From contig JAIRWS010000045.1 in NCBI GenBank assembly GCA_031268855.1, positions 1 through 43,348 of the forward strand: a DNA stretch of 43,348 bases, written 5' to 3'. The notes under the pieces are model-generated. The model searched no databases. It had not been told where the DNA came from and saw nothing but the letters and a program-made list of their open reading frames with translations. Source of the stretch: Candidatus Margulisiibacteriota bacterium (GTDB lineage Bacteria > Margulisbacteria > Termititenacia > Termititenacales > Termititenacaceae). The translations under genes were made by a program, and so were the position numbers. This document shows positions 24,856 through 43,348 of this stretch, piece after piece (position 1 is the stretch's first letter; the number at the start of each line of letters is the position of its first letter).

Positions 24856-24882
24856 AAGAAGCACCTCCTTTCCAGTCTAAGT

Positions 24883-24985: not shown

Positions 24986-26044
24986 TTATAGTTTATTAAG
25001 CCTCTCTGACAAATCATTTATAATGCTTCTCATTTTCCCTTTTACAGCTTCAGGAAAGTTAAAATTTTCATAAAACCATTGAGCTTTTTCAGAATATTTT
25101 ATGGCAATTTCCAGATATTCTTTACATCTACTTATTTCTTTCACTACTAAATACTTGTAATGCTTAGCAAGAACTTCATATAAATAGGGATTATCTGGAT
25201 CGTATCCCAGCACTGTATTAATCTGCGCTACCCCATTCTTAATCTCTTCTAATGACTTCTCTTTTAGCAGCTCATCATGCTGTAACCCTACCGAATCCGC
25301 CAATAGTGCCCAAAAGTCAACTTTACGGCTATAAAACTTATTTTTATGCAACGCGCCCGGCACACCGTATTCTGTAGTGGGTTCCTTTATTTCCTCTCCG
25401 GCTACAGCAAAACAATGCACGCCTATTTCATTATCTTTTTTTGTCCAAGCAAGATAAAGTTCGGTGTGTTCTCTCAAGACAGACATGACCAGATAAAAAA
25501 GCAACGCTAACGGCTTGCAATCTGCTTGTTTATAGTATCCTGAATTGTCAAAGGTTGCGCCAGTTAATATTCGATGACAAAGTCCGGTAAAAGTTCTATT
25601 TTTAATATCATATTTTTCAATATATTCTTTCCGTTTTCCCATAAGAATACTATTATGATCCGCTAAGGTCATTCGTCCGTTTAAACGTCCTAAAACTTCA
25701 AAAACCACCTTAGCCTTTGGCTTGTTCGGATTCTTGGCAATAACTATTTCACAATTAATTTTCGCTAACTCAAGCACGTCCAGACAATTCACTACAGTCA
25801 GCCAATCTTTGGCTCCATCTGTTAACGCAAAAGCAACCACTACCGCTGAAGCATGTCCGATTTCTTTTTCTAAAATCGCAATAAATTGCCGAAATTTTTT
25901 TTCACCATATTCACTAAGAGAAAAATCACTCAAATATAATCCTTGTTCCTGGGCAATTTTTTTGACCACAGCTATCTGGTTTATTATTGCTGTATTGAAT
26001 ATCTCCCGCAAATGTTCATCTTCGGCAACGTTTTTCAAATACAT
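24986..26044 (-). CDS. hypothetical protein (352 aa), last gene of the AT-rich cluster
   Basis: Intact ORF with GAGG 9 nt before the ATG and AT-rich codon usage like the three genes upstream. No signal peptide and no motif I recognise. Confidence 0.6.
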   Translation of the reverse strand: MYLKNVAEDEHLREIFNTAIINQIAVVKKIAQEQGLYLSDFSLSEYGEKKFRQFIAILEKEIGHASAVVVAFALTDGAKDWLTVVNCLDVLELAKINCEIVIAKNPNKPKAKVVFEVLGRLNGRMTLADHNSILMGKRKEYIEKYDIKNRTFTGLCHRILTGATFDNSGYYKQADCKPLALLFYLVMSVLREHTELYLAWTKKDNEIGVHCFAVAGEEIKEPTTEYGVPGALHKNKFYSRKVDFWALLADSVGLQHDELLKEKSLEEIKNGVAQINTVLGYDPDNPYLYEVLAKHYKYLVVKEISRCKEYLEIAIKYSEKAQWFYENFNFPEAVKGKMRSIINDLSERLNKL

Positions 26045-26122
26045 ACCTGGTACCTCTACAAAGATATCGTCGGTTTTTAAGAAAAGTTGCGGGCTTTTCT
26101 TGGGGTATTCTTTAGTATTCTT

Positions 26123-28462
26123 TTAAGAATAGGCTTCAATCAAAGCCTCGAGAAAATCGCGGTCTATCGTCCACTGCAGCATAAATTCAGCAGGGCGCAG
26201 ATCTTGATTGACGCGCCAGACGGCCTGCGAGGTATTCCAGTCCATGTAGCCGCGCTTGAGCGGGATGAAAACTTCCAGCAAAGCGTCATTCTCCAGTGGA
26301 GAAAACTCCACACTTTTGATCTTTTCCGCTAATTTGCGGCCGTCCAGAAAAGTGATCGTTTGTAGCAACTCTTCCACCATCGGTTTGGCCGCCGGATATT
26401 TGCCGTTGACACACAAAATATCGATCTCTGGATACATTTCGGACTCCAATTGATCGCGCAGGGATTCCAGCTCATTTTTGATATATTGTTTACGCTCCTC
26501 GGTACCGGCTTCGGGATTATAATACTCGCCGATCAGCATGCCGGACTTGATCGAGCCGTAGCCGCTTTTGAGGAGCATTTCCTGCAAAGCCGCGATAAAG
26601 GGGTCTTTTTCACCGTCATAACTGATCGATATCTCATAGGGTTTGTTATGCATAATTTCCGTAAATCTGGCCTGTACTTTTTCCTGCACGGTTTCCGGCA
26701 TTTTCATCGCCGAGCAGGCCACGCGCACTGCCGCCGCGCTGTCCACTTCCGGCAAAAGCTGTATCAGCCCGATTTCTCTGGCACGGTCTACAATGTATTT
26801 CCGCAGAGAGTTTTTATATTTTTCTTCCTGACCTTTGGTAATTACTTTAAGTATCATTTGTTCCAGCGCAGAGGCTTCTTCATCTTGAGCCGCGCGAAAC
26901 TGTTCCCAGCCAGTTTTGGAAAACTGCTTAAGATAGGCCACAATATTGATCCAAAACGGAGGATATAGATACAGCTCTTCCAGCGGCTTAGCGTTTCTAC
27001 TATTCTGGTAAAGTTTATATACTTCTTTTTCTAGCATCTTATAGTTCGCTTTATGAATACCAATCTCATACACGGCTGTATAGATAATATTTAAAAGCTT
27101 AGTCAATAAAGCTTTGTATCTTTTCTGCAAGAAAGCGTAAATTTGATCTTTTTCTCTGCCTAACCGTTCAAAATCTACGGAACCATCTGTTTTAATAAAA
27201 TACAGAGCTAAACCTACTAACACATTACTCATCAAGCTCATAAACTCTTCTGTTTCATCAACAAACCAATTATCGGATATATAGACATATAAATCCCGTG
27301 AAGCTCGTTGAGTGTCCTTATCAGCTAATTCTGCAAAACGGGTAAACGCGCCCTTACGTGCGTCCCGCGCCGGCGCCCAATCCGCCAAGGCCTCAATTAA
27401 AACAGTGCCCACTCCTTCTCCCTCTGGAAAATTATTCCGAAAAGCATTATGAATCGGCTCCATATCTATAAAAGACACATGGTGCCCCATCTCGTGCCAG
27501 AGTATTCCGTCAATCATTTCCTCAATAAATAGTTCTTTAATATTCAGTACATCTGCAGTTTTCCGCGCACCGTAAAAAGTTAATGCTTTTTCTTTAATAC
27601 CTTCGCGCAGCGCGGAATTCACATGATGCAGCGCGTGTTTGCGTTCGGCTTTGGACTGGTCAAAGAATTTCTGCCATTTGTTAAAGAAGATAACCTCGCA
27701 GGCCTCACGGCGAATCATAGTTATATCTTTATAAACCTCTGCCGCCACGGACAAAACAAACTGTGGAGAACGGATATATTCTTTTTGGATGATACAAGCT
27801 TTATTTCCTAGTAAATCTTTCTCGTCTACTTCGCCAAAAATGTAACGCAGGCCGTATGGCCTGCTATGGGTATAAAACAAATAATAATCAACATCCAGCA
27901 AATCCAGAAAATCATTGATATAAGCAAAATCAATATTCGGATATTTACGGCCAAAAATATCCAATGCGTATTCTTTACGAACATAATTTAAATAAGCGTC
28001 GCCCGATTTACTGCCCTGCCGTTTGTCGCATTCGTCTAAGATTCTGCGGAAACGATCGGCATCAAATTGTGTGACCTCACGGTTATTGGGAATATTCAAA
28101 ATATTCCGGCAAAAAGAAATGGAAACTCTTTGCTCCCCCATAGGGCCAAAGTCTTTGCGTTTGTCCATGGATAAATAAATCAGCAAGGCTAGCTCTTTTA
28201 ACTCCCGGTAAAGATATTCTTTGACAAATTCTCGAATAGAATGAAGTTCTTCTGCTTGTTTATCGGGTTGTTTAATTCTTTTAGCAACCAGTTTCGTTAA
28301 TTGTCTATCTTCTAAAGAACGCGCGTCATCCTGAAGCGCGGCGCCGTATTTGACGCTAAACTGCTCATGCAGTTTTTTTAACTCGTTATCCGTCGATTTG
28401 CTGTATATAGATATTTCCACTAAGAACCCCTGAGTAATTTTAACACATTTAAATTTAAACAA
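26123..28462 (-). CDS. HExxH zinc-metallopeptidase-like protein (gluzincin/MA-clan pattern), 779 aa; start possibly GTG 28420
   Basis: ILWHEMGHHV (HEMGHH = 27479..27496) followed 29 residues after the second zinc-ligand His (H327) by LIEALADWAP (third-ligand Glu pattern). No signal peptide. The TTG at 28462 lies inside the T-tract of the upstream terminator, whereas GTG 28420 has AGGGG 6 nt upstream. Confidence 0.65.
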   Translation of the reverse strand: MFKFKCVKITQGFLVEISIYSKSTDNELKKLHEQFSVKYGAALQDDARSLEDRQLTKLVAKRIKQPDKQAEELHSIREFVKEYLYRELKELALLIYLSMDKRKDFGPMGEQRVSISFCRNILNIPNNREVTQFDADRFRRILDECDKRQGSKSGDAYLNYVRKEYALDIFGRKYPNIDFAYINDFLDLLDVDYYLFYTHSRPYGLRYIFGEVDEKDLLGNKACIIQKEYIRSPQFVLSVAAEVYKDITMIRREACEVIFFNKWQKFFDQSKAERKHALHHVNSALREGIKEKALTFYGARKTADVLNIKELFIEEMIDGILWHEMGHHVSFIDMEPIHNAFRNNFPEGEGVGTVLIEALADWAPARDARKGAFTRFAELADKDTQRASRDLYVYISDNWFVDETEEFMSLMSNVLVGLALYFIKTDGSVDFERLGREKDQIYAFLQKRYKALLTKLLNIIYTAVYEIGIHKANYKMLEKEVYKLYQNSRNAKPLEELYLYPPFWINIVAYLKQFSKTGWEQFRAAQDEEASALEQMILKVITKGQEEKYKNSLRKYIVDRAREIGLIQLLPEVDSAAAVRVACSAMKMPETVQEKVQARFTEIMHNKPYEISISYDGEKDPFIAALQEMLLKSGYGSIKSGMLIGEYYNPEAGTEERKQYIKNELESLRDQLESEMYPEIDILCVNGKYPAAKPMVEELLQTITFLDGRKLAEKIKSVEFSPLENDALLEVFIPLKRGYMDWNTSQAVWRVNQDLRPAEFMLQWTIDRDFLEALIEAYS

Positions 28463-28492
28463 AAGAAAGGGTGTCTTAAAAAGACACCCTTT
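28457..28492 (-). terminator. Rho-independent terminator/attenuator between the 181-aa gene and the HExxH gene
   Basis: On the minus strand there is a 12-bp perfect stem (aaagggtgtctt / aagacacccttt, 28466..28492) with a 3-nt loop, followed by cttttgttt. It is preceded by a T8 run. Confidence 0.6.
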
Positions 28493-28520
28493 AAAAAAAA
28501 GCCCTTAAACTTCTACAAAA

Positions 28521-29066
28521 TCAGTTAGGGTCTGCAACAGTACCTGCTGCGTCAGTCTCCACCTTATCTGCCATTGCCGCGGCGCTTGCAACATGGGCTT
28601 CTAAATCAACGCCAGCGAGCGGGTTGACGGCTGTTTCGTTGCGGACTTCTTGGGTAGCAACGGCTTCGCCGCTGGTAACCCTAAAACCACTACTACGGGT
28701 AGCAACCGCTCTTTCAGCCTCTATAAATCCCGCTTGCTCACGCCATGTTTTTACTGTATCAGCAGACGGAATCGGATCGCCAACACCTATAATCACATTA
28801 TAGTTTTTCAGCGCGACTAGTCCAAAACGTCCTAACTCTGTGTTATTGAGCATGCCATCTTGATTAACCAAGCTGCTAACATCCTTGCCTTCTTTTTCTA
28901 AAGCATCTAACAAAGCGATTACCTTAGCTTGGTTCTCAGTTGCCAGCGCTACTTGACCAAGAACATTCAACGCGTTAGCCGCAATTCCAACATTCGCGCT
29001 TATCCGGGCAAACGAAGCAAACCTCGCTGCCACATCTAAAAATTTTACAAATCCTTCTATTGCCAT
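28521..29066 (-). CDS. hypothetical protein (181 aa): helical N-terminal half and Ala/Thr/Val-rich C-terminal half
   Basis: Strong SD (AAGGAG 8 nt before the ATG), 140 nt downstream of the giant ORF stop. No signal peptide or recognisable motif. Confidence 0.6.
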   Translation of the reverse strand: MAIEGFVKFLDVAARFASFARISANVGIAANALNVLGQVALATENQAKVIALLDALEKEGKDVSSLVNQDGMLNNTELGRFGLVALKNYNVIIGVGDPIPSADTVKTWREQAGFIEAERAVATRSSGFRVTSGEAVATQEVRNETAVNPLAGVDLEAHVASAAAMADKVETDAAGTVADPN

Positions 29067-29206
29067 GATCTTTCTCCTTTATTTTTTATTTTTATTCTAA
29101 AACAAAATATATTGACTAACTAAAGTACTTCACCTCCGTTTAAATTAAAAATACTTTTTTTATCTTCATAATTATATCGTAAGTAACTCAAAATTGTTTC
29201 ATTTTT

Positions 29207-32200
29207 TTAGCTCTGGCCAGCGGGCAGTTTTAAGGCTTGTCCGGGGTGTATTATATAAGGTTCGCTAATATTATTAAGGCGAGCTATATCCTGCCAGCGC
29301 AAGCCAAACTTCTGGCCAATCCTAGACAGATTATCGCCGCTAACCACTGTGTACGTTTCCGGTCTTTCGATCGAAACCACAGTACGTACCCCATCTACAT
29401 AAAGCAGCAGATTATCCAAAAGCGTCTGGAGATAATCGGCGCAAGCAGACTGCTCTTCTTTGCCCGAATTTCGTAAACCAGCAACGGTCTGCTCTAAATG
29501 CCGTTTATTTGGATCGACAAAACGCATCCTAGAACTCACACAAGTTTGCACAAACTGGCGGGCAGGTTCGCCCATAGTTAAAAGCAAAGTCTGCATCAGC
29601 AGTGGCGAACGGATAACCAGAGACTCTATTTTCCAACGATAAGCCGGATTATCCACATATACCGCATAAAGACTGCCGGCCAGCTCTTGCACAGCTTCTG
29701 CGGATAGGCTGTCTGTTTTTTGTAGCAGCCAGCTTATAGACAATCCATAATCATCTCTATGTGCCATGATTTCATTTACGGTCGCTATATTGTTCAACAC
29801 CAAAAAGGCATCAAAGTCCTCTTCATGATAAGGAAATCGATTTTCATTGCGTTGTGCTATTGTCAAACGATTAAATTGTAAATTATTCCTGCTCGGCTTT
29901 TTGCCTTCCGCGAGCATAACCACACACTCAGCTAGCTGCCCGCTAAAAGATGTCCCTATTATTGTTCTCACAATATCAGCTTTATTAGCAGAAACTAAAT
30001 CAAACTGCTGAATTTGCCGCAAAATGCCGACTAGCTGCAGTGTATCCACAGCCGCCGTTCCGCAAACTGTATTTATGGCGCTAACTAAATCTTTATAAGC
30101 CAAATACACTTTTGTTATATCAGGCGGCTGGCCGAGATCTGTATAACCCAATCCTTTAAGCATATCTATTGTTTCGTTGGTATGCATTGCGGCATAATTT
30201 TTCTGAAAATATTGATAATCCAGCAAAACGTTTATGACCTCTGCGGCTTCCGCGTTTTCTGGTATCAAGCGCAGGGCAATCATCTGGCTGCGAATTTTAT
30301 TATAGTTATTGAGATCAGCCTGCCCGGGATTAAAAGAAGTTTCTTCCAGCGTAAACCGGCTGGCTATTGGGGTTTGGTTTCTGAGAAATTGAAAAGCAGA
30401 CCTGATTAACTCTTTGTTTTGCTGTTCTCCGGCATCATTTGCGAAACCCATGACAGAAAGCAAATAGTCTGAATCCGAATAAATATTGTTTAATAAATCT
30501 TTAGTCGTGTTAAATTTAGCAGATCTGCTCAAAACTGCCGACTGTTCTGCAGGAATCACACTACCGTTTAACGGCTCTTTAGCTCTGGCCGCAGCCTGCG
30601 CCGGAGTATCCGCTTGTTTCACTTCTATCGCGGCTTGATTGAGTATTCGAGGCGGAAGCATATCCAATGGAATATAAACAGGCTGATTAGACTGCAATAC
30701 GCTATCTATATTTAACCCATTTGTGTACAAAAATACATTTATTATTTCCGCTCTCTGCTCTTCCGGTACAGAAAAACCTCTCAAAAACAATTGCTCAATA
30801 TAATTCACCGCTTTCATTCCAGCCTGCTCTGGACTGACCATGCATCTTACTGAATAGCTGCGCAGAGTCCCTATCCTGTTTATATCATTAATCATTGCCC
30901 TATTAAGTATCGTGTTATCAATAAAATATTCCGTTGACATATTGACGCCGCCGCTCAGCCGCGCGGCAAAACCAATCTCACCATTTAGATATTTACGTAT
31001 ATTTTCCCTTTGAGCCGCTTTGTTAGCGCCGCTCCAATGAATAATTAAGGCAGAAATTATTTCTAGCATTTTCTTAGCTTCTGTTCTTCTTTTAGTTTCT
31101 TCATCGTTAAATTTCGCCAATTCATTCCTGTCAGCGGCAATTTCCGGCGGAGGAGTCGGCAGAGCAGAGTTAGCGAAAGCTGTCCAGGCATCTCTGCGGC
31201 TGGTGTTGCCGTCAATACATTCCAGCGCAATCAAAGTGCTCTCCATAAACAGCGCGGCGTTATCCGAGCCAGCTCTGGACAAACTCCAGTTGTCGCCAAG
31301 CTCGGCCATAGCCTGTGTATCCGTTGCCACAGAAAAAGTTCCCGACTGGCTCAATCTAAAATCAAAAAACTCTTGCAGCCGCTGGTTTGGATCGAGTCCT
31401 AATACATCCAATCCGTAAGAAACGTTTGTTCCCAAAAAGCCCACTGGCAAACGGCCAACTAAAATATTTCCAAAAAAATCCGCCAGCTCTCTTTGAGACA
31501 AGGGCGGATTAGCGCGAAGTTTTTCATCTGTTTGTTTTCTAATTTCCGCTAAAATAGCGTCGTTAGCATAGGACCTGCTATTGATTGTCGGGGATTGACT
31601 TCTTTCCAGAATCGCCCACGTCATAAAGCTATTAAACAATTCATTATTCGCGGCAAAAAGACCTACAGGCTGCTCTGTCCGTAGCAAATCCTTCATCGTC
31701 GGTTTTTGATTGGTAGAATTTAGTGGGTCAAGAGTATGCGGAATTTGCACTCTAGCACAACGCAATGTATTGGCGTCTACCGTAACGCCATATTTTGCCA
31801 TATTTCTAATAAATGCCGCATCGCTCGGCGCTTCAGTCCTGCCATGTGGGACCAGTTTTAACCACGCGGACCTGGCATAATCTCGGCCAATACCAGGAAT
31901 GATATTGGTCAGAAAATACCGATATTCATTTTTAGTTAAACTAGCAAAAGGGCGCACGGACTCCGAGCTGCCAGCTACTGTATCTGTTAAAAATCCTGCG
32001 CTGCCGACAGCTAATTGCGGATATTTAGCGCCAAAAAGCCGCATGGCATTGGACATTACAAATTCAAAAAATTTGGCTTTGCTCTGGACGCCTTCTGTTC
32101 CGGTGGTGACCACAGCATTGTCGCCGTCCTGCCCAAACATAGTAAGAGTGCCGACCAAATTCACCGTATCGCTGATTATCGGAACAGTATTATAAAAATT

Positions 32201-35200
32201 CCGCTGCGCATTTATATCGCCGCTACGCAAGGCGGCTATAAAATCTTCCCACATAGCGTCAAATGTTTCTTTGTCTGTCCAGCTTCTGACCACAAACCCT
32301 TCAACTATTTCCTGACGCTGGATATTTGGCACCATAGCGCACAAAGTTTCTCGTATGTCCGCCAAAAAACCCATATCCTCAAACCATCTGGCCACTTCAA
32401 ATTGCATCGGACGGACACCTTTAGAATATTTGATATCAAAAAACCTCCGCATCGTCATGGAACGATCCAGCGAGGCATAAATATTAGCCTGCATATCTTT
32501 TTCTAATGTGCGCGGCGCAAAAGCAGCCTCGGCAGAGCTGGCCAGCCAATTACCAACTTGCAGTCCCATCATAATCTGTCCGGCTACAGGCAATACTTTG
32601 CCGGTGTAACCCAGCAGTTTTGGCACAGTGTAAGTCAAGGAACGTATCAGCACCACACCGCTGGCAGTATGCATGGCATTGCGTGTTACTGTCGTTTTAA
32701 AGTTTAAAGAATCAAAATTACGATTGACCTCCTCCAGCGTTAAGGCTGGCGGCGGGGCAATGCCAAGCTCTTGATTTCTTGTTCTTTCTTCATCTATATC
32801 TTTAAAAGCTTTATTTCTGTTGGGTTCAAAATAAACTTTATCCATCACATAACCCAGTCCCATTACTGCTCCAACACCAGCAAAAGACCGCAAAAGGGAT
32901 ACAAGTTTCATCACGCCTTTGGACAACGGAGAAGGAATAATAGCCGACATTATCATACCGGGTATTTCAAAAGCCAGATTGGCAAGGCCTTCCGACATAC
33001 AGGCTAATGACAGCTCCGCCTGAAATTTCATTTGTTCATAGGGATCAGTGCTGGCTGCTCTAGCCAGACATTCTGGATTATTGATCGCTTTCAGCGGACC
33101 TTCCATAAAATAACCGCCCAGGAACAAAGCCGGAAAAGCAACCGCCAGATAACTGGCATAGCCTTTAGCATTTTTTCCCAGCGATTCTTTGAGGATTTTT
33201 AATTTGCCGCTCTCCTTATCCCGGAAAAGCAGCGCGCCTAATTCTGCCGGTTTTACAATGGCGTTCCCACCCAGCAAGTGATTGACCACGCTCAAAGAAA
33301 TATCCGTAGCCAGATCATCGCGGATAGAACACATAACACCGAAACCAGTATTGTCCGGTATACCGATCAGCCAGTTCGCCACACGCCGTTCAAACTCTCC
33401 TTCTTCAAGAGAAGAATTCCCCGCCCATTCTCCATTTGGCCTGATAAACGTGTTAAATGCCGACAGCGCTAATCCCAATATAAAAGCGCCTTGCGCGGCA
33501 TCGATGCGTCCCACAGCTTTGCTATAAAACTGACCCAATTTTCCCCTAAGATCCGGGCTCAATCTATCCAAATGCCGCTCTGCTATTTCTCTATGCAGGC
33601 GTTCGTATTCATCTTTCGCCGCCTGCAGATCACTAGCATATTTGTCCTTGACCGCCTGGCCGGCTGTTTCAGCTGGTTTATTGTTCTCCAGCAAGGTAAT
33701 CCTTTCCAGTAGCAAAGCCATAGCGGGAGATAAAACCGCTTGATTTAAACTTCTCAATGTTTCCGCATCGCTGGCATTGACATCTCTAATCAAGTTCCGA
33801 ATCTGATTCGTAACATCTTCTATTTCAGGATTTACACCTGCTGTTCTTTGACCAGGAACTTCTACGCGCAATATTTCCGCCGTGTCAGGGCGAATTTCTA
33901 CATTCAGCGGCCCCACAACATCAATGGCTGTCCGTCCTGCCAAAAGAAAATCGCTGGGATCATTTGATTTAGCATAGTTCGTCTCCAGCGTAATTAATTT
34001 CCAGCCGTCCGCCGCTCTGTAAAGAACATCCATGCGTCCATTAGTGATGTCCACTTCGCTGGCGCTTTCTCCGCCCGGGTGAATATGCGCTAAACGTCCG
34101 CCTATGGCATCGGCTATATTTTTGAACGCAGGTAGCGCCACACAGCTGTCTTTCCACTCTAAAGCCTGCAAGTCTTTAATAGCTGCATCGCTCAAATTTC
34201 TAAAAAGAGCGTCCACTCTCTCACCATAAAAGCCAATAATTGTGGTTTTTACCGCCTCAGCCGGATGCTCGGCGGCCTGCGCGGCTCTAAGCGTAGTATA
34301 TAGATCGGCCATTGTTCTGCCTTGAGGGAAATCAATTTCTCCAAGTTTCAATACTTTGCTGGCTTCCGGCTCGATAACGCGTTCTAATTGTTTATTTTTG
34401 TCATAAATCAAAATTACCGGAAGCTCTGTATTAGGATTTTTACGCGCTATTCCGTCCAGCTGAGAATTTCTGGCAGGAGGAACATCAGCCGGATTTGACG
34501 CGGCATTTCTATTAACATCCGCCGTATCCACATTGTTATACGCCCGCCAGGCTTCTTCTTCTGAAGAAAATCTCAGCTCGCGCCCATCCGCCGTGCTTAA
34601 AACGAAAACATCCCGATACTGCCTGCTTGCGACACGATCTCCCAAACGGCGCATACCGGCCGGAATAGGATTATCTTGCCTGCCGTGCACAGTCAAATTT
34701 CCATCGAAATTATATTTAGTAGTTCTTTGACCGCGTCGCACTCCCAACGCGCCAGCTTCTTTATTACCAATCAAATTATGATAAAAGGCGTTTAGAATTT
34801 CTTGACAATTACGCAAATACAGATCGAGAGCTGAGAGAGACCGCGCGTCTTGTTCGGCGCCTGATTCGTCCCCGGCAATACGGCTGGTTCCTCTTTCCTG
34901 CCGAAGTTTCAAGTAATTATCGCCCGCTTCTTCCAGCGCCGCTATATAGGCCCGCACATTGGCTCCGGTAACGCCCAGCGTGCCCAGATGGTCTAATCCT
35001 TCTCTAGGAACAATGTAACCATGCGCGTCAAAATATTTACTATTCACAAAATTTATATACTCATTATAAGACACCGGTATTTTTTCCGCGCCGAGTTTCA
35101 GATCTAACAATCTGGCTGTCTCCATCCGCAAAAAAGCTTCCCGGGGATTTACGCTTTCATTAAAAATATTTTTAGCCCTGGCCAGCATCTCCGCAGGAAT

Positions 35201-38200
35201 AGCTTTACCGAATTTAGCCGAATAGGCTTCGCTGACTATCCGGCCAAATTCTTCCGCCGAAGCAGGCATTTTATCCAGCGGCAAATCCAGACGAGTTAAA
35301 TCGCGCAGTTCGGATTGAAGATAGCTTTCTCTGGTAACTGTGGAGCTTTGTTCATAAATTCCTTTGCTCAACATTTCACGGATATCCTGCAAGCCCCTGT
35401 CCGCCGTAAAAGAATTATTTAACATACTAGCCATTCTGCGGACGATTTCTTGTCGTTCAATAACCTGCCGTGTCATTTCATCAGGCTGTATATTATTGAT
35501 TCCACTTTGATTGATATGGCTCATTGCTGCTCTGGCGATTGAAGACACCAAGCCAAGCTCTGTTCTGCTCCAAAGATGCTGCAAAGCCGCGACTTCGTCC
35601 GCAGTTAAACGTTGTCCGTCCGGCACAGACGGCGCGCTCATCTTGGCCAGCTCAGTTTGGAATTTCTCTACAAACTCATATTTTGCATCATTCGGCGCGG
35701 CGCCATCCATAAAAAGGTCGCTGATTTTTTCCCATTGCATATTTCCGCCGGTGTATGTCTTTATGGTGTCACGCAGAGCCGTAGAATCAACTTCTGCCGT
35801 ATAGCGGTCTCCATTGCGCGGCTTCGGCAACACGTCAGGCGAAATACCAACTCTTTTATAAAGGTCATCTGTAATACTCGACAAAACATAAACGCTGCCT
35901 CCGGCTGAAGCGCGGTCTACACGGTTCAAAGCTTGAATATAATCCGCCAATCCGCCAGCCGGTTTTTCATACATAATCATATCAAAGGCTTTTATCTCAA
36001 AAGTTTCCGTCTTACTTAGATCTCTCTGTCCAAACTCTTGAGCGTTTAGTTTTGACAATCCTTCTTGTTCGGCGCCGTCTCTTACCATTTCCAGACCGGC
36101 CAGCGATTCGGCCAGTTTTAGCTTGGCCTCCGCATCTTTAGTTTTATTATATTCACTCCGCGTATCAGCTATTAGCTTGTTTATGGTTTCTACGAGTGTC
36201 AGCGTTGAATTTCTGGGATTAGCCAGCACATCCTTTACTAATTGCGCCGCTTCGTTATAACTTTTGGCCGGAGACCAATCCACGCCTCTGCCGCCTAGAT
36301 TGGTCATCAACACAATCGCGCCCGCTTGTCTGGTCTTTCTAACTATAGCGCGCAGGGTTTTTGGATCTGCATCATGATCATATATGTATATTCCGTTCTT
36401 CTCTAATGTTTCTAGACCTTTCTGACTTATTTCTTCTATTCCTTTTTTATTTTTGGTTATTGCCTCCGGGCAAATCATTCTGACAATTTCAATTATTTTT
36501 TTCGGATCGGGACAATATACACCCATTGAATTAGCGTTAGTTGCCGTTCTATAAGTATTAATTAGTCTCTGAAATTCTGCATCTCTAGCCTCTCTTGTGG
36601 CAAAAACTTCATCATAAACATCCATTCGCGCTTCGGCGATTTTATTTACAGCCACTACATTTTTGTTATAAGGATCGTATGATGCGCCCGTTATTGACGC
36701 CGTGCCGGAAGCTCCAGCAAAATTTCCGTTAGAACTAATATAACGCAGCATAGTACTGACCAGCATAGAATCAGAATCCGACCGTGACACCACAAACAAA
36801 CCAGCTTTATCAATTAAGTTCGGGTGTCCATCTGGGGCCAGTTCTCTGGCTTCCAGCGCGCCCTGTAGTCCGCCGAAAAATTCAAAACCCCACTCGCGGT
36901 TGTACCGGCTGCCGAAATTTGCTTCATCGGTATACTTGCTCAATAATACTATGCCAGTCTGGCGGGTCTGTTGGTCAACATCAACTTTATAATCTGTGCC
37001 GTAACGCATATCATTGCGCACGCGCAAACTATGCACCAGCTGGGTTTCCACCAGAAAACGAAATTCCTCCATAGATAAAGCTGTTATGCCTTTTTTAGCG
37101 TTATATTTACCCAGCACTTTAGTGTCCAGCTCATTAGCCTTAATAAGCTCCGGCAAACGATTAGTAACAAAATCCGCCCATTTAGTAGCGTCCTCGACTT
37201 CCAAACGTCCGGCTAAATTAAGTTTTAGACCGCACTCGTTTAATTTTAAACCCTGCACAATCTTATCAATAGTAGTGCAGAAAAGGGCTTGCAAGGCAGA
37301 CGGTTTGCCGGAAATTTGCGATATTTTGTAAGGAGTCATCGCTTGTTTGGCGGTCAACACATCTATCTCATCGACAGAGAAGAACAATTTACTCATATCG
37401 CCAAAAACAGTTTTTAGTCCCATCAGTTCCGCGCTGCGGTCGGACAGCAGTTGAAAACCCAGAGAACGGTTTGACATATAGACAAAATCGCTTTTGGCAA
37501 AGGCATCCGCAGCATTGGCGGCGTTTCTATTGTCAAAATTAAAATGCTGAACCTTTACATCATAGCCAAGCATAACCTTAAAATAACCGCCGTGCTTCAG
37601 CACATCAGCTCTGCCATCTGACGCTAAAATCTCGCTGGATGTAACGATAATTGCTTTCTGGCCGGAGAAAATTTTTAACATGCCAGCCATCTGCAAAATA
37701 ATTGTCTTGCCTTCGCCGCAGGGAGCGTCCAAAATCTTGCCGTTGTTGATAACCAGCATACCAAGCGTCTGCATATTATTGACCCTGAATCCTATTTCAG
37801 ATCCCACTAAAATACCTGCTGGGTTTTTACCGGGACCGGCTTTATACATAATGTAATCGTCTAACGTGCGGGAAGGATTTTTGGCAAAAAACTCGTCCAT
37901 GTCGCTTATATCTACTTTAAATCTACTCCGCAGATCCACCGTGCCGTTCCTGTTTTTACTCCATTCAGCATTTAGATCAGAACGCCAGTAAGCCTCTCTA
38001 GACAACGCGATAAATTCCGCAATGCGCACCTGATCAGCAGGGTCATTAAAATCCGGAGGCCTCCGGCCGATCTCTGTTCTAATTCGCTCTACTGCGTCTA
38101 ATAACTCGCCGTTATTCATTTTGGCAAAACCAGGAACGACTCTTTCCTGCGTAACACCATTTATCTCATAAGTAATTCGCCCGCCCAGTTCATATACACC

Positions 38201-41200
38201 CACATTTCTGTTGGTTTGCGCATATTCTGACTTCTCTAATTGATAACGGTTTAGATTGGATTGAAAAGTTTCCATAACATTGAAAGTGCTAAGCGCGTCC
38301 CCTGAAAAATCCAGAACGCGCGTAGAATTTGTCTGCTGAAATTCCAAATTGGCCGGACGCAAGTAAGTTTCTATGGCCTGCCCTTTTATCACTTCAAAAA
38401 TTTCTTGCAGCTCTTTAGGAAAACCCTGCAAAACTCCAGAATCGTTCATCGACACCACATAATGCTTCCCGCCAAAATCAAAATGTAACCCTGGTTTTGT
38501 TGCCGCCGACGCGCCACCGTGAATGATCTTAACGTCGCTGGCTCCCTTGTTCTTTAAATTTGTAACAAAAGCCATCGTTGTGGTCGGAGCGGATTCAGTC
38601 AAAGCTCTAATATAGGAATCTGTTACCGCTCTCTGCAAATCAATCTGTGGGTCAGTTTTAATCTGTTTATCCAACCCATCAAAGAAAAGCCTGGCTCTTA
38701 TCGGATTAGTGTCGCCGCCCAAATCGTTATACACTTTTTGCCAATCATATTTGGCTTCTGTCAGGGCAGCGCGCGCCTGTTCTGGTGGCTCATAAACCGC
38801 TGGCTGCTTTGGAAAAAAATTCTCCACTCTTGCAGCAGCTTCATTAACAACTGTCTGCGCGCGCATAGTGTCATTGGTTTGAACAGCCTCGATAAAATCT
38901 CGTCCCATAACCAGGTTTAAAGCCGAAGTATCTGCATTGGGCAAACCAGAGGAGGCCCGCCATTCAAATATCGTCCGTCCCAGAGAAGGATCTATTTCTA
39001 TCGAGGATAATAAAGCTGTGCGGCCATTTTCTTCCACCTGCCAGAGACCGCCTTCGACTTTTTTGAAACGCGCGTCGCCTGAATTTTCCAGATACGCCGG
39101 TAGCATCTCGCCGAATAATTGCAGTGTGACTTCGTTTCCTGCCAGACGGTAAGCGTCAGTATTCCGGAGGAGCTCTGCCGCGGTGCTTTTTTCCGCGTCA
39201 TCAAGATTGGTTTCTGCATATTGATATAGGTCATTTAATGTCTTGATCTGTTCCAAGCCCAGACGGCTGCTATAATTATCTCCCAAACGGTTTTTCACGC
39301 CGCTTATTACATCCCTTATATTCACTTCTATATTGGTATAAAATTTTCCAGTGGCTGGATTTTGCGAAAAAGACACCCGTCCAGGCGTTTCCAGCACAGG
39401 CAGACTTTGATAACGCCCGCGCGGGTTAACTACAGCTGCATTGACTGTCTTATTAGACAAACGAAATGGCACATAGAAAGCAGCTAAAAAATTCCTGCCG
39501 ATTGCATGAAGTCCATATTTCACAACACTCAGTTTATATTTCCAGTTGGGAATGCTGGAGCCGTCCGGTGCCAATGTAGAGGGCATAGGGATTGGATTTT
39601 TAGACTCTACCGTATAAGACCTTCTAAAAAGTCTGCCGATAAGCGGTATTTGCGCAAGCAAGCGATGCTGCGGGCGAAGCTGCGTATAGGCTCCGTCCGT
39701 AAAGGCTTCAGTATTGCCATTGAGGCTATTCACAATTTCCCGTGAGGCGGCGGCCAGTCCTTCCGGCGTTTTTAACCAATTTCGGCGTTCTCTATTAGCA
39801 AAAATCCCATAGTTATTTCTTGTTTTGACCAATAGATACTCTAAATCAACATTGCCGTACAAACCTTTTAGATAATTACCAATGATGGTTTTAGCCGCTC
39901 CCATGCTTCTGGCTTCCACTTCAATATCGCGGCCGTCAACCATAAAAACAAATTTGCTGTTTTTGCCAACTACCGGAAGCGATTTTAGAACTATAGCACT
40001 GCGCTGAATGGAACTAGCCGTTATTTTTGTAAGCATATTTATATAAAAAACCGCGAATACATAATTGGAAATCGCGTCGGCAAGACCAGCTCCAATTGCT
40101 CCATTCTGAAACTCTTGCCTCGTCTCCATTGTCATCATGACAAACATATCGGGCGCATTCCAGGGCAAAAGCATACTCAAGGTATTCATAATTGTATTGA
40201 ACGCTTCCTCGCGCTTAGCCGGATCTCCTGATTGCAGTATCTCCAAAGCCGATTTCAAAATGCCAGCCATTGCGGCAAAAGGTGATGCTAAATTTGACAA
40301 TGACGTTAATCCGAAATCTTTAAGATGATTCCTATCATTTTGAACTAATTTAACTTTCTGCGCCGACTGATCAGAAATATATTCATGTACTTCCAGATTT
40401 GAAACGCCAAGCTCGTCAGCTAGATAAATACCAGGAGTCCGAGAAGCATCTGCGCGTTTTGCCAAATAATTTATATACTCCGCATATTCTTCATCGCCGG
40501 CCGTGCCGGCGGCTATAGCAAACATTGTATCGGCTGACTGCACTGGATAAAATTCGGTGAAAAAACTTTCCAGCCATTTAGCTTGAGCGTTTTGTTTTAT
40601 CCAAGCATCCTCATCTTGTATAAGTTGTTCTTTTTCCCCATCATATCGTCCCTCGAAATCAATTTGAGCGGCATTCCACGCTTTAGCTCGCGTCTCATGT
40701 GCCTCTCCTTCTTTTATATAGTGTGCGCTTTCCTCTCTATACCTGTCTCTGTCCAGTAATAATTTTCGTATCATCTCAAAAAACTCTTCACAAGCAAAAC
40801 CATAAGATTCTTTAGCCTCTAATTCAGCATCACTTACAAATTTGTCATCTAGAGAAATTTTCTCGTCATCTATAATAATGTCATCCAGAATTCGATATCC
40901 TCCGCGTTCTTTATCATAGATAAAAAAATTATAAAAATCGGCCAACGCTTTAGCCCCATCGGCAATGCCATACCTATCCTCAATATCAGCCACAACATCC
41001 GGGCTTTGTTCCCTTATCTGCGCCGTGAGCATATTGTAATAATAGTCATAACTGTCCGTTCCAATTGGTGGTAAAACTTTTATTGGTTCGGGCACTTCCA
41101 ATGTAAAAGGTTCTGGCTTATCATTTATATGGGCTTGGTACTCTTCGCTATTGACTAAATCAGTTGGCGTAGCTTCTCCTGTGTAAACAAAATCAGTCGG

Positions 41201-43342
41201 TATTCCCATGTTTTCCAACAGGAGCTTAATAGTAAGCGCATATTTAGTTAGTCCGCCTGGATTATTGACATCCTTAATATTATTGGCTGTTATAAAAAGT
41301 CCCAATGCTATCTGCGCATTCTGGCTGCCGGGATTATAAAGAGCCTCGTTTTCGGCGGCCGTACGCAGAACGTACAATTGTTTATAAAAGTCCAGATCAA
41401 ATCCTGGCACTCCGCGCATTCTGGCTTCCACAGAGGCGACATCCATGTTAAATTGCCTTTCGTTTCCGGGCGCATTTTCCTCTGTATCTATCAGCAATAT
41501 GCCTTCCGAGAATCTAATCATTCCCATCTCGACAATAGCTGTTTGGTCGTCTTCAACTTTAATACTTACCGATGTCCATTCCTTCCAGGCTATTTGTTTC
41601 AAAACCTGTTTTTGTTCATCAGTAAGTTTTCCGTTGTCCCAAATATCCGAACCCAAATCAGCGGGTTCCGGCAAATGGTAATTGCTCTGCACAGCAAGAA
41701 CATCCATTTTCAAATTATCGTCAGCTAATTCACCTTTTGTCGCCAGATATTCACACAAATAGGCTTTGAATAAAGTCAGCGGGCGCGGATCTGTGGTCTT
41801 GCCCAAATGACCGGTCGAAAAATCTGTTCCGGCAAAGTATTTATCATATACAAATTGAGTTAAGGCGTATAAATACCCTCTGGTTTTTTTTAATTGAGAG
41901 TACTTTTCATTCTCAAATAATTCCCGATCCTCCGTCGAAAAAGCTTTCTCTAACGCTGTGTAATCAAAAACAGGCTTGGCCGTATTACCGACTGTTTTAA
42001 AATCATTCCAGAATTTACTATCCTGCGGTTCGCCTAATATTGCTTGAAAAAACAATCCGTCTATTTTGGGTTCATAGACAGTACTCCTAGCTGTTTCAGA
42101 TAAAGCACTGACTGTATTTTCAGTTTGCCGCAAACCTGGAATATTCGGGAGATCAGCCGACGAGGAATGTAGTGTGGAATATTTTAATCCGAGAAGTCTG
42201 AACTCTGAATTATTTATCATACTTAGATTGCGCAGATAAACCCATTGCCTTACAACAATCTCCTGTTTCCGCAGAACATCCATTGCTTCAACTATTTCCT
42301 GCGGATATGAACCGTCTGCCGCAGGATAAATATTAAAACCATTGGTGTGATAATTTTGTCCTGGTTCGCTTTTTAAGTAATTACTGGCCGCTTCCAATTT
42401 TGCCCGCTCTTCAGCAGAAAATGTATTTGCGTAAGCTGCGCCATTTAATAAAGTGTCCAAAAATACTGTGGAGATGGAATCATTGCCTATTTCTGTCAGC
42501 ACTACCGTTTTAGCCTCTTCACTCGTCGCATTGCGGTATACTTCCGCCAAAATTAAACCTTTGAGATAAACCAACGGATATTTTTGATAAAGTTCAGGCG
42601 GAGCAACTACCATTTCAGACAAAACACTCATAGTTGCTTCATGGCTGTAACCAACATCCAGCACTTTTCCTTGAGAACTTCTTATTATTGCTGGATTTTG
42701 CCTCGTTACTACAATCATCCCTTCCGGCAGCTCCGCTAAACTTTCCACAAAAGCCCGAACAACTTCCGGCGTAACCTGCGCGTAAACAAACGCTTCTTTG
42801 ATATAATCACTGTTGCTAACAAAAGCTTCAGCAAAATCCCGCAGCAGCCGGATAGTGCTAATATCCCTGTCTCCGGCTAAAAACCTTACAGCGGCTTTAT
42901 CTTCAGCGCCGACAGCATCGCTCGGACGGCTGGCTCCCTGATTGTGGCTGGTTTCCATTGCTTCCGCCATACCCAAAATATACTTCTGCACGTTGGACAG
43001 ACTTTCATTAAGTAGAGCAAAAATCTCGTCATTGATTTTATCCAAACCGACGTTTTGAATATTTTTACCGTTGGCGGTTAATAATTCCTGCGCAAACCAA
43101 ACAAGCTCCGCATTATGAAAATCATTTTTCTGCAATAAAGCTCTTACTAAAATTGCGTTTTCCAAGGGACTAATTTCTTGACCATTATTAAGTTTGGCAA
43201 CAATTTGCGCTTGCACAACAGAGCCGGATAACAACGTATTTAAAACTCGTTCATATCTGGGCTTTTCTGCGGCAGAGATTTTGCCGTCATTAGCAAATCC
43301 ATTTATAGTTAAATCATACCGCGGCACCCTCAAATCTGACAT
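29207..43342 (-). CDS. giant multidomain protein (at least 4711 aa) with an internal SecA-like ATPase motor, a hydrophobic segment cluster and a C-terminal LysM domain
   Basis: Uninterrupted 14.1-kb ORF. The 6 nt between the ATG at 43342 and the window edge contain no stop, so the N-terminus may lie outside the window. SecA-like motifs occur at aa ~1840-2499, and LysM at aa 4664-4707 (YTVVSGDNLSRIGQKFGLRWQDIARLNNISEPYIIHPGQALKLP). Confidence 0.9.
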   Translation of the reverse strand: MSDLRVPRYDLTINGFANDGKISAAEKPRYERVLNTLLSGSVVQAQIVAKLNNGQEISPLENAILVRALLQKNDFHNAELVWFAQELLTANGKNIQNVGLDKINDEIFALLNESLSNVQKYILGMAEAMETSHNQGASRPSDAVGAEDKAAVRFLAGDRDISTIRLLRDFAEAFVSNSDYIKEAFVYAQVTPEVVRAFVESLAELPEGMIVVTRQNPAIIRSSQGKVLDVGYSHEATMSVLSEMVVAPPELYQKYPLVYLKGLILAEVYRNATSEEAKTVVLTEIGNDSISTVFLDTLLNGAAYANTFSAEERAKLEAASNYLKSEPGQNYHTNGFNIYPAADGSYPQEIVEAMDVLRKQEIVVRQWVYLRNLSMINNSEFRLLGLKYSTLHSSSADLPNIPGLRQTENTVSALSETARSTVYEPKIDGLFFQAILGEPQDSKFWNDFKTVGNTAKPVFDYTALEKAFSTEDRELFENEKYSQLKKTRGYLYALTQFVYDKYFAGTDFSTGHLGKTTDPRPLTLFKAYLCEYLATKGELADDNLKMDVLAVQSNYHLPEPADLGSDIWDNGKLTDEQKQVLKQIAWKEWTSVSIKVEDDQTAIVEMGMIRFSEGILLIDTEENAPGNERQFNMDVASVEARMRGVPGFDLDFYKQLYVLRTAAENEALYNPGSQNAQIALGLFITANNIKDVNNPGGLTKYALTIKLLLENMGIPTDFVYTGEATPTDLVNSEEYQAHINDKPEPFTLEVPEPIKVLPPIGTDSYDYYYNMLTAQIREQSPDVVADIEDRYGIADGAKALADFYNFFIYDKERGGYRILDDIIIDDEKISLDDKFVSDAELEAKESYGFACEEFFEMIRKLLLDRDRYREESAHYIKEGEAHETRAKAWNAAQIDFEGRYDGEKEQLIQDEDAWIKQNAQAKWLESFFTEFYPVQSADTMFAIAAGTAGDEEYAEYINYLAKRADASRTPGIYLADELGVSNLEVHEYISDQSAQKVKLVQNDRNHLKDFGLTSLSNLASPFAAMAGILKSALEILQSGDPAKREEAFNTIMNTLSMLLPWNAPDMFVMMTMETRQEFQNGAIGAGLADAISNYVFAVFYINMLTKITASSIQRSAIVLKSLPVVGKNSKFVFMVDGRDIEVEARSMGAAKTIIGNYLKGLYGNVDLEYLLVKTRNNYGIFANRERRNWLKTPEGLAAASREIVNSLNGNTEAFTDGAYTQLRPQHRLLAQIPLIGRLFRRSYTVESKNPIPMPSTLAPDGSSIPNWKYKLSVVKYGLHAIGRNFLAAFYVPFRLSNKTVNAAVVNPRGRYQSLPVLETPGRVSFSQNPATGKFYTNIEVNIRDVISGVKNRLGDNYSSRLGLEQIKTLNDLYQYAETNLDDAEKSTAAELLRNTDAYRLAGNEVTLQLFGEMLPAYLENSGDARFKKVEGGLWQVEENGRTALLSSIEIDPSLGRTIFEWRASSGLPNADTSALNLVMGRDFIEAVQTNDTMRAQTVVNEAAARVENFFPKQPAVYEPPEQARAALTEAKYDWQKVYNDLGGDTNPIRARLFFDGLDKQIKTDPQIDLQRAVTDSYIRALTESAPTTTMAFVTNLKNKGASDVKIIHGGASAATKPGLHFDFGGKHYVVSMNDSGVLQGFPKELQEIFEVIKGQAIETYLRPANLEFQQTNSTRVLDFSGDALSTFNVMETFQSNLNRYQLEKSEYAQTNRNVGVYELGGRITYEINGVTQERVVPGFAKMNNGELLDAVERIRTEIGRRPPDFNDPADQVRIAEFIALSREAYWRSDLNAEWSKNRNGTVDLRSRFKVDISDMDEFFAKNPSRTLDDYIMYKAGPGKNPAGILVGSEIGFRVNNMQTLGMLVINNGKILDAPCGEGKTIILQMAGMLKIFSGQKAIIVTSSEILASDGRADVLKHGGYFKVMLGYDVKVQHFNFDNRNAANAADAFAKSDFVYMSNRSLGFQLLSDRSAELMGLKTVFGDMSKLFFSVDEIDVLTAKQAMTPYKISQISGKPSALQALFCTTIDKIVQGLKLNECGLKLNLAGRLEVEDATKWADFVTNRLPELIKANELDTKVLGKYNAKKGITALSMEEFRFLVETQLVHSLRVRNDMRYGTDYKVDVDQQTRQTGIVLLSKYTDEANFGSRYNREWGFEFFGGLQGALEARELAPDGHPNLIDKAGLFVVSRSDSDSMLVSTMLRYISSNGNFAGASGTASITGASYDPYNKNVVAVNKIAEARMDVYDEVFATREARDAEFQRLINTYRTATNANSMGVYCPDPKKIIEIVRMICPEAITKNKKGIEEISQKGLETLEKNGIYIYDHDADPKTLRAIVRKTRQAGAIVLMTNLGGRGVDWSPAKSYNEAAQLVKDVLANPRNSTLTLVETINKLIADTRSEYNKTKDAEAKLKLAESLAGLEMVRDGAEQEGLSKLNAQEFGQRDLSKTETFEIKAFDMIMYEKPAGGLADYIQALNRVDRASAGGSVYVLSSITDDLYKRVGISPDVLPKPRNGDRYTAEVDSTALRDTIKTYTGGNMQWEKISDLFMDGAAPNDAKYEFVEKFQTELAKMSAPSVPDGQRLTADEVAALQHLWSRTELGLVSSIARAAMSHINQSGINNIQPDEMTRQVIERQEIVRRMASMLNNSFTADRGLQDIREMLSKGIYEQSSTVTRESYLQSELRDLTRLDLPLDKMPASAEEFGRIVSEAYSAKFGKAIPAEMLARAKNIFNESVNPREAFLRMETARLLDLKLGAEKIPVSYNEYINFVNSKYFDAHGYIVPREGLDHLGTLGVTGANVRAYIAALEEAGDNYLKLRQERGTSRIAGDESGAEQDARSLSALDLYLRNCQEILNAFYHNLIGNKEAGALGVRRGQRTTKYNFDGNLTVHGRQDNPIPAGMRRLGDRVASRQYRDVFVLSTADGRELRFSSEEEAWRAYNNVDTADVNRNAASNPADVPPARNSQLDGIARKNPNTELPVILIYDKNKQLERVIEPEASKVLKLGEIDFPQGRTMADLYTTLRAAQAAEHPAEAVKTTIIGFYGERVDALFRNLSDAAIKDLQALEWKDSCVALPAFKNIADAIGGRLAHIHPGGESASEVDITNGRMDVLYRAADGWKLITLETNYAKSNDPSDFLLAGRTAIDVVGPLNVEIRPDTAEILRVEVPGQRTAGVNPEIEDVTNQIRNLIRDVNASDAETLRSLNQAVLSPAMALLLERITLLENNKPAETAGQAVKDKYASDLQAAKDEYERLHREIAERHLDRLSPDLRGKLGQFYSKAVGRIDAAQGAFILGLALSAFNTFIRPNGEWAGNSSLEEGEFERRVANWLIGIPDNTGFGVMCSIRDDLATDISLSVVNHLLGGNAIVKPAELGALLFRDKESGKLKILKESLGKNAKGYASYLAVAFPALFLGGYFMEGPLKAINNPECLARAASTDPYEQMKFQAELSLACMSEGLANLAFEIPGMIMSAIIPSPLSKGVMKLVSLLRSFAGVGAVMGLGYVMDKVYFEPNRNKAFKDIDEERTRNQELGIAPPPALTLEEVNRNFDSLNFKTTVTRNAMHTASGVVLIRSLTYTVPKLLGYTGKVLPVAGQIMMGLQVGNWLASSAEAAFAPRTLEKDMQANIYASLDRSMTMRRFFDIKYSKGVRPMQFEVARWFEDMGFLADIRETLCAMVPNIQRQEIVEGFVVRSWTDKETFDAMWEDFIAALRSGDINAQRNFYNTVPIISDTVNLVGTLTMFGQDGDNAVVTTGTEGVQSKAKFFEFVMSNAMRLFGAKYPQLAVGSAGFLTDTVAGSSESVRPFASLTKNEYRYFLTNIIPGIGRDYARSAWLKLVPHGRTEAPSDAAFIRNMAKYGVTVDANTLRCARVQIPHTLDPLNSTNQKPTMKDLLRTEQPVGLFAANNELFNSFMTWAILERSQSPTINSRSYANDAILAEIRKQTDEKLRANPPLSQRELADFFGNILVGRLPVGFLGTNVSYGLDVLGLDPNQRLQEFFDFRLSQSGTFSVATDTQAMAELGDNWSLSRAGSDNAALFMESTLIALECIDGNTSRRDAWTAFANSALPTPPPEIAADRNELAKFNDEETKRRTEAKKMLEIISALIIHWSGANKAAQRENIRKYLNGEIGFAARLSGGVNMSTEYFIDNTILNRAMINDINRIGTLRSYSVRCMVSPEQAGMKAVNYIEQLFLRGFSVPEEQRAEIINVFLYTNGLNIDSVLQSNQPVYIPLDMLPPRILNQAAIEVKQADTPAQAAARAKEPLNGSVIPAEQSAVLSRSAKFNTTKDLLNNIYSDSDYLLSVMGFANDAGEQQNKELIRSAFQFLRNQTPIASRFTLEETSFNPGQADLNNYNKIRSQMIALRLIPENAEAAEVINVLLDYQYFQKNYAAMHTNETIDMLKGLGYTDLGQPPDITKVYLAYKDLVSAINTVCGTAAVDTLQLVGILRQIQQFDLVSANKADIVRTIIGTSFSGQLAECVVMLAEGKKPSRNNLQFNRLTIAQRNENRFPYHEEDFDAFLVLNNIATVNEIMAHRDDYGLSISWLLQKTDSLSAEAVQELAGSLYAVYVDNPAYRWKIESLVIRSPLLMQTLLLTMGEPARQFVQTCVSSRMRFVDPNKRHLEQTVAGLRNSGKEEQSACADYLQTLLDNLLLYVDGVRTVVSIERPETYTVVSGDNLSRIGQKFGLRWQDIARLNNISEPYIIHPGQALKLPAGQS

Positions 43343-43348
43343 AAAAAT

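Follow-up and report, generated by a model that had tools for sequence, protein, structure and literature searches.

Does a giant protein that is annotated only for peptidoglycan binding carry a SecA-type motor in its middle, and what could such a motor do there? The question is raised by contig JAIRWS010000045.1 of a Candidatus Margulisiibacteriota metagenome-assembled genome (MAG; GCA_031268855.1), which was analysed over its entire length of 43,348 bp and is called the window here. A sequence-only reading of the window had proposed that a complete SecA-like motor, consisting of two nucleotide-binding domains (NBD1 and NBD2) and the preprotein cross-linking domain (PPXD), is buried in a giant open reading frame (ORF) on the minus strand. 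SecA is usually regarded as a single essential housekeeping enzyme. We found that the module is very probably a SecA-derived NBD1-PPXD-NBD2 motor that has neither scaffold nor wing and is probably active, and we propose that it may handle or export polypeptides at the membrane. The database name of the giant protein is only 'LysM peptidoglycan-binding domain-containing protein', and this annotation overlooks the SecA-type motor altogether.

Relationship of the embedded module to SecA

On the whole giant protein, Pfam detected SecA_DEAD (E=3e-16, or 4e-17 when aa 1800-2550 were searched) and a C-terminal LysM domain, and no other family. The phmmer search against all PDB sequences gave 23 matches, all of which were SecA or SecA2 (best E=2e-11). 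The NCBIfam model PRK12904 aligned contiguously with the module, aa 1851-2366 with model positions 76-498, through the PPXD up to motif V. The NCBIfam SecA models scored 53-62 bits overall against curated cut-offs of 800-930, which is below the equivalog level in each case (TIGR00963, 53 against 800 bits; PRK12904, 57 against 814; the secA2 model TIGR03714, 58 against 930). When 1.84 billion representative proteins were scanned exhaustively with the motor by HMMER, a handful of giant relatives was followed by ordinary SecAs only. Many of the SecA matches ran as one stretch, from query ~50-455 to SecA ~76-450, and spanned the PPXD. The exhaustive scan was needed because a word-indexed protein search returned neither the window protein nor any relative of more than 3 thousand aa (kaa); giant proteins of this size are easily overlooked in searches of that kind. 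The motor is ~22% identical to SecA.

The profile of three giant modules was aligned with that of nine SecAs by hhalign, and a probability of 99.1% was obtained (E=9e-19, 476 aligned columns). The alignment was also cut into NBD1, PPXD and NBD2, the giants and the SecAs were realigned separately, and the resulting profiles were compared domain by domain. The probability was 99.7% for NBD1 alone (E=1.7e-26), 96.8% for PPXD alone without the NBD flanks (E=2.8e-10, 57 columns), and 99.0% for NBD2 alone (E=6.9e-18), whereas four mismatched domain pairings, which served as controls, gave only 0.1-3.1% (E >=0.014). The 57 columns of the PPXD match correspond to its C-terminal core (DYxV...IVDEFTGR...GLHQAIEAKE in SecA). 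In the window protein, the signature of this core reads GTDYKV..GIVLLSKYTDEANFGSRY..GGLQGALEARE and belongs to a PPXD-like stretch at aa 2106-2168. It is recognisable in all nine giant modules, for example as GLQYAIEAKE in the relative P0018. The N-terminal half of the insertion had no significance by itself in the hhalign comparison, and Pfam SecA_PP_bind was not matched on the module.

The predicted structure led to the same family. The AlphaFold model of aa 1840-2520, which was based on a 58-sequence alignment, reached a mean predicted local distance difference test score (pLDDT) of 78.9 and a predicted template modelling score (pTM) of 0.65, and most 10-residue blocks of its PPXD-like region had a mean pLDDT of 82-97 (68-69 in the lowest). 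A model of aa 1821-2820 from a 10-sequence alignment was not used (pLDDT 37, pTM 0.25). When the module was compared with the PDB by Foldseek, the top 34 matches were SecA or SecA2 chains (E=3e-22 to 1e-12, TM score ~0.5, 650-680 columns), ahead of any helicase, and DinG/XPD helicases formed the second tier with E ~1e-9. The sequence-only reading had held that the similarity goes beyond a generic DEAD helicase, and it had named in advance, as what would speak against it, a generic superfamily 2 (SF2) helicase as the best match and no PPXD-like insertion. The top profile, sequence and fold matches were all SecA, and the insertion was present.

Every motif quoted in that reading was found once and exactly where it had been placed (Table 1). 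The arginine-rich box of motif VI (RVDRASAGG) is less degenerate than had been claimed: residues Q2470-x3-R2474-x2-R2477 preserve the Q..R..R pattern of the SecA sequence QLRGRSGR, and the closest relatives of the window protein show it as well. The Walker A GxGKT, the Walker B DExD, SGT and GRG are retained across homologues that are only 24-43% identical. In an alignment of five proteins over the shared ~3,000 aa, the best-conserved blocks were Walker A, Walker B, motif VI and a part of the hydrophobic region described below. Because the catalytic motifs are the most conserved positions across such distant homologues, the motor is probably still catalytically competent. Between motifs V and VI, NBD2 contains a predicted helical, charged-rich insertion of ~100 aa (aa 2357-2455, ~35978-36274). 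It was found in every tier-1 relative (see below), and its position is presumably that of the variable subdomain of some SecAs.

Other parts of SecA were not detected. The motor is flanked by ~1,840 aa upstream and ~2,200 aa downstream within the giant protein. The 450 aa following NBD2, in both tiers of relatives, were compared with the C-terminal region of 66 SecAs, and no scaffold, wing or IRA1 was recognised (hhalign 0.1-1.9%). Pfam SecA_SW and SEC-C had no match in the giant protein, and Pfam, NCBIfam and PDB sequence searches of aa 1-1800 and 2521-4661 gave no significant match. As judged from its sequence, the giant protein is not a canonical SecA, though its motor is SecA-type. The sequence-only reading was right to set it apart from housekeeping SecA: the motor is embedded, scores below the canonical cut-offs and is accompanied by no detectable scaffold, wing or C-terminal domain. 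Its term 'complete motor' applies to NBD1-PPXD-NBD2 only, and of the Pfam models that it had proposed for comparison, SecA_DEAD matched while SecA_PP_bind and SecA_SW did not.

Table 1. Positions of the giant ORF, its motor and the gene cassette (window coordinates unless a locus is given)
Feature	Coordinates	Strand	Residues or size	Remarks
Giant ORF	29207..43342	-	4,711 aa	Uninterrupted
SecA-type motor module	35783..37825	-	aa 1840-2520	NBD1-PPXD-NBD1'-NBD2; Pfam, PDB, NCBIfam, hhalign, AlphaFold, Foldseek
NBD1, first part	37319..37795	-	aa 1850-2008	hhalign of NBD1 alone
Walker A GEGKT	37703-37717	-	aa 1876-1880	
SecA-type extended Walker B VDEIDVLTAKQAMTPYKIS	DEID at 37361-37372	-	DEID, aa 1991-1994	
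PPXD-like insertion	36773..37318	-	aa 2009-2190	Between motifs II and III; hhalign of PPXD alone
NFAGASGTAS with motif III SGTA	SGTA at 36698..36709	-	aa 2207-2216; SGTA, aa 2212-2215	
NBD2	35846..36652	-	aa 2231-2499	Closes with LSSITDDLYKRVG
Motif V TNLGGRGVD	36278-36304	-		Within NBD2
Motif VI QALNRVDR	35912-35935	-		Within NBD2
ALNRVDR...DDLYKRVG	35846-35932	-	aa 2471-2499	
Upstream hydrophobic cluster	40007..40312	-	aa 1011-1112	Moderate; Kyte-Doolittle scan
Downstream hydrophobic cluster	32531..33517	-	aa 3276-3604	Four to five conserved segments; alignment-averaged hydropathy
C-terminal LysM domain	29222..29353	-	aa 4664-4707	Pfam PF01476, E=3e-14, 53 bits against a threshold of 20.9
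Small ORF	28521..29066	-	181 aa	Directly downstream of the giant gene
Small ORF, counterparts	L003:20404-20769; L005:24456-24890; L002 about 18700-19260		121-181 aa	Same position
~770-aa partner	26123..28462	-		HEMGH at 27482-27496; no Pfam domain
~770-aa partner, counterparts	L002:19354-21576; L003:20883-23180 and 24603-26097; L005:24961-27288			
Fourth cassette gene	24986..26044	-	352 aa	Homologue of a 432-aa gene at the same position in L005, E=3.6e-15

The giant protein, its family and its gene cassette

An unbroken ORF of 14 kb is in itself evidence of selection. The length of the gene is given differently in the databases, as 4,711 aa in IMG and as 4,642 aa in NCBI (MDR1452934.1), where the start lies 69 codons later (region 43294-43342). 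In an N-terminal alignment, residue 1 of the longer form pairs with residue 1 of the homologue from Ca. Termititenax persephonae. The 4,711-aa start is probably real because of this residue-to-residue alignment, which favours the longer call. No signal peptide was found in the giant protein, and Pfam and PDB searches of its whole length revealed no nucleic-acid-binding domain. A single sub-threshold match, to the PCu(A)C chaperone (E=0.004), appeared in the searches of the remainder of the protein and of the cassette partners, and was taken as noise. The C-terminal ends of the window protein and of the relative P0014 share 68% identity over the last ~53 aa, a stretch that includes the LysM domain. 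Hydrophobic clusters are located on both sides of the motor, and comparable peaks were seen in most relatives; from the averaged hydropathy, the segments at aa 3276-3604 are candidate membrane-spanning helices.

About eight related proteins of 3.5-5.4 kaa were found in Candidatus Termititenax and other MAGs. For four of them, which we call tier 1, the alignment with the window protein extends across roughly aa 1570-4640: P0012 (Ca. T. persephonae, 5,138 aa), P0013 (5,298 aa), P0014 (3,494 aa) and P0018 (Ca. T. aidoneus, 3,922 aa). The tier-2 proteins (P0016/P0161, P0017 and P0019; 4.7-5.4 kaa) share only the motor with the window protein. The window protein, P0014 and P0018 have the LysM domain, and P0012, P0017 and P0019 lack it. 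A neighbour-joining (NJ) tree of the motor core separated the nine giant modules from 103 SecAs by one bipartition with bootstrap support of 100/100, and tier 1 was supported by 83/100.

The giant gene is the first of a cassette in which it is followed by a small ORF, a ~770-aa HExxH protein and a ~350-430-aa protein. The same order recurs in the loci L002, L003 and L005, and was also found beside tier-2 giants. The copies of the small ORF are rich in Ala, Val and Asn, and only weak N-terminal similarity was detected among them (E=6e-4 and 0.016). The ~770-aa protein is encoded two genes downstream of the giant gene with the SecA module at the window and at all three loci, is duplicated in L003, and has homologues on the same contigs as P0014, P0018 and P0019. 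It is 73% identical to the syntenic ORF of L002, 39% to that of L003 and 49% to that of L005. Between the window and Ca. T. persephonae, the identity is 73% for this protein compared with 29% for the giant proteins. The HExxH motif and a Glu 29 residues past the second His are invariant in the family. Because of the invariant HExxH motif, and on that alone, the protein is regarded as a putative zinc metallopeptidase. Profile and per-member scans of the family gave no significant Pfam or PDB match, and a match to fragilysin around the HExxH was non-significant (E=0.12). For all three cassette partners of the giant gene, nothing significant was obtained in Pfam, NCBIfam and PDB sequence searches. 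Genes of ~900 aa upstream in L002, L003 and L005 were considered as further members of the cassette and were rejected for their lack of mutual similarity.

Shorter homologues of the ~770-aa protein (540-590 aa) are present in Treponema genomes, where they have no giant neighbour; the named ones are 41-56% identical over ~70% coverage. In Treponema sp. R80B11-R83G3 (BDHF01000031, L004:8235-13381), two such homologues are adjacent with no giant gene nearby, and a 552-aa protein with a weak Peptidase_U49 match follows them. Gene exchange between Margulisbacteria and spirochaetes might explain these homologues, and so might mis-binning.

The GC content of the giant gene and the cassette (24000-43348) is 41-44%, as against ~53% in the housekeeping genes (4000-23900), a block which includes murA, ybeY, gap, serA and pgk. 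Neither a tRNA gene nor a repeat was found at the GC boundary near 24 kb. GC is likewise low (~45%) in the first 4 kb of the window, where tRNA-Asn(GTT) at 1278-1351 (+) is followed by a YhcG/DUF1016 PDDEXK nuclease gene at 1761-2765 (+). A pilus-like gene group at 11797-18856 (-) is located 10-17 kb from the giant gene, with housekeeping genes in between. It encodes a 582-aa T2SS-T3SS_pil_N protein, several small secreted proteins without known domains, a pseudopilin with an N-terminal methylation motif and an A24 prepilin peptidase, and a gene for an NtrC-type regulator (+) is interleaved.

Possible roles of the embedded motor

We propose that the SecA-derived motor drives ATP-dependent handling or export of polypeptides at the membrane, and the probability of this identity and mechanism taken together is estimated to be roughly 0.6. 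For the ATPase activity, the membrane topology and the substrate moved, we infer the following course. Binding and hydrolysis of ATP at the NBD1/NBD2 interface would make the PPXD clamp open and close on an unfolded polypeptide. The scaffold, two-helix finger, wing and C-terminal tail, which couple canonical SecA to SecY, would have been lost or would never have been present, and the protein's own hydrophobic helices might replace the missing scaffold and wing by tethering the motor at the cytoplasmic membrane. The motor would then export or insert extracytoplasmic parts of the giant protein itself, for example the C-terminal ~1,100 aa with the LysM domain, or the products of the cassette. The HExxH partner possibly processes the exported product, and the C-terminal LysM may anchor it to peptidoglycan; LysM domains are normally extracytoplasmic. 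The same reading has been proposed for the giant proteins of Omnitrophota (10.1101/2023.11.21.568195).

Several observations weigh against the export model or against the evidence on which it draws. Canonical SecA needs the two-helix finger, the scaffold and SecY to push its substrate, and none of them is detectable or linked here. The segments of the two hydrophobic clusters have only moderate hydropathy (Kyte-Doolittle values of 1.0-1.5), and the motor is ~750 aa away from the downstream cluster. A rough topology estimated from the flanking charges gave no consistent result, and this reading was dropped. Some relatives deviate in the motifs: motif V reads GGQG in P0014, motif III reads SGS in P0019, and P0016 has a deletion at motif VI. 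Long-branch attraction might have exaggerated the grouping of the giant modules in the NJ tree. Since canonical SecAs were part of the alignment given to AlphaFold, the fold match depends to some extent on the sequence evidence.

The same features allow other explanations. Ca. Termititenax are ectosymbionts attached to termite-gut spirochaetes, and the giant protein might be an effector or adhesin that another system exports in its entirety and that acts on or inside the partner cell, where the motor would work. Its hydrophobic segments would then enter the partner's membrane and its LysM domain would bind the partner's peptidoglycan. The very fast evolution outside the motor, to the extent that tier-2 relatives share the module only, would agree with such a role, as would the lower GC content of the gene and its cassette compared with the flanking core genes, the homologues of the ~770-aa partner in Treponema genomes, which show 47-56% identity in named records, and the SecA-like helicase-related domains of Amoebophilus effectors (PMC3482391). 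However, no secretion signal was recognised, and no genes for type III, type IV or type VI secretion systems are present in the window or the cassettes. Moreover, an ATPase requires a supply of ATP, which fits the producer's cytoplasm, and the LysM domain equally fits anchoring to the producer's own wall. We regard delivery to a partner cell, including the entry of the segments into its membrane, as unlikely. A more elaborate proposal is that the giant gene and its cassette encode a self-contained, SecY-independent machine whose membrane-anchored motor exports and installs its own giant polypeptide, which the metallopeptidase processes into a surface structure for cell-cell attachment anchored to peptidoglycan, and that the partner gene has been exchanged with Treponema. 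In this full form the proposal is speculative, and we would give it little credence.

Two further explanations concern the motor itself. The SecA fold might be kept as a scaffold or interaction surface that neither hydrolyses ATP nor moves polypeptides. The high divergence from SecA, the absence of scaffold and wing, and the loss of SecA-specific residues (EKPAGGL in place of ERHESRR, and no counterpart of the first Arg of LRGRSGR) are consistent with a structural relic, but the catalytic motifs are the most conserved positions of the family, the reverse of what would be expected of an inactive ATPase. Such a relic is improbable. Alternatively, the module might be a nucleic-acid helicase of the generic SF2 kind (DEAD-box or DinG/XPD) whose insertion has nothing to do with SecA. 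This would account for the RecA-like core, which such helicases share, for the second tier of fold matches, and for the weak Pfam matches to DEAD (E=0.037) and Helicase_C (E=0.12). These matches are below the gathering thresholds (14.2 bits against 26 and 13 against 23.5, respectively), all significant sequence and profile matches are SecA, and the insertion by itself is homologous to the PPXD of SecA. SecA structures are ahead by more than 10 orders of magnitude in the Foldseek E-value, and the giant protein has no recognisable nucleic-acid-binding domain. The candidate was rejected on these grounds, and the chance that it is right is very slight.

Comparison with known SecA-type proteins

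The module shares with DinG/XPD helicases the core of two RecA domains and the presence of insertions in domain 1. It differs from them in sequence (9-12% identity), in the lack of PPXD homology on their side, and in the strength of the fold match (E ~1e-9 against 3e-22 for SecA).

The order NBD1, PPXD, NBD1', NBD2 is that of canonical SecA (B. subtilis 1tf5 and 1m6n, E. coli 2fsf), whose structures are the best fold matches of the module. GEGKT, DExD...TP..IS, SGTA, GRGxD, Q..R..R and the closing LS..DDL are all present. Unlike canonical SecA, the module has no scaffold, two-helix finger, wing, C-terminal linker or zinc finger, and its NBD2 carries the ~100-aa insertion. The best single PDB sequence match was SecA2 of C. 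difficile (6t4h and 6sxh, E=2e-11), which resembles the module in being a specialised, non-housekeeping derivative of SecA. SecA2 differs in that it is a free-standing protein of ~780 aa, keeps the scaffold and works with SecY or SecY2.

Zhang et al. 2012 (PMC3482391) name SecA-like helicase-related domains in a list of the C-terminal domains of Amoebophilus effectors. These effectors and the window protein have in common that a SecA-like NTPase module was recruited into large, fast-evolving proteins of a symbiont, a comparison that is based on the mention in that list only.

A close parallel in architecture is found in Omnitrophota and Actinobacteriota. Divergent SecA DEAD and preprotein-binding domains have been reported in the majority of giant Omnitrophota proteins and in some of the actinobacterial ones (West-Roberts et al., 10.1101/2023.11.21.568195). 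The Omnitrophota modules are without scaffold and wing, are located near transmembrane regions and form a separate clade, and self-export of the giant protein was suggested by the authors (10.1101/2023.11.21.568195). In a 2026 preprint, a PF07517 architecture cluster is listed among long Omnitrophota proteins. For Margulisbacteria, the sources mention only an abundance of very large proteins that are uncharacterised (10.1101/2023.11.21.568195 among them). Embedded SecA motors in giant proteins are thus already known, and no description of the Margulisbacteria family or its cassette was found in the literature.

As in the Omnitrophota and Actinobacteriota giants, a divergent SecA motor with a PPXD and without scaffold or wing is contained in a huge protein with hydrophobic regions, which in the window protein are candidate transmembrane segments. 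The Omnitrophota modules are also placed outside canonical SecA in phylogeny, and their likeness to the window module is drawn from the published description. The differences are clear in size and accessory domains. Omnitrophota giants exceed 30 kaa, whereas the Margulisbacteria proteins have 3.5-5.4 kaa, and none of the best 150 relatives in the HMMER scan was larger than 30 kaa. No glycosyl hydrolase, peptidase C39 or dockerin domains of the kind found in Omnitrophota giants were detectable in the window family, while the window protein has the C-terminal LysM domain and the cassette with the ~770-aa HExxH protein. The locus adds Margulisbacteria, as an independent lineage, to the cases in which NBD1-PPXD-NBD2 has been freed from the SecY-coupling domains. 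The family could serve as a test case for the idea that a SecA motor acts in cis, on the polypeptide of which it is part, even when no two-helix finger is present. With ~4.7 kaa, a motor that can be modelled and a cassette of four genes, it is far more tractable than the Omnitrophota giants of more than 30 kaa.

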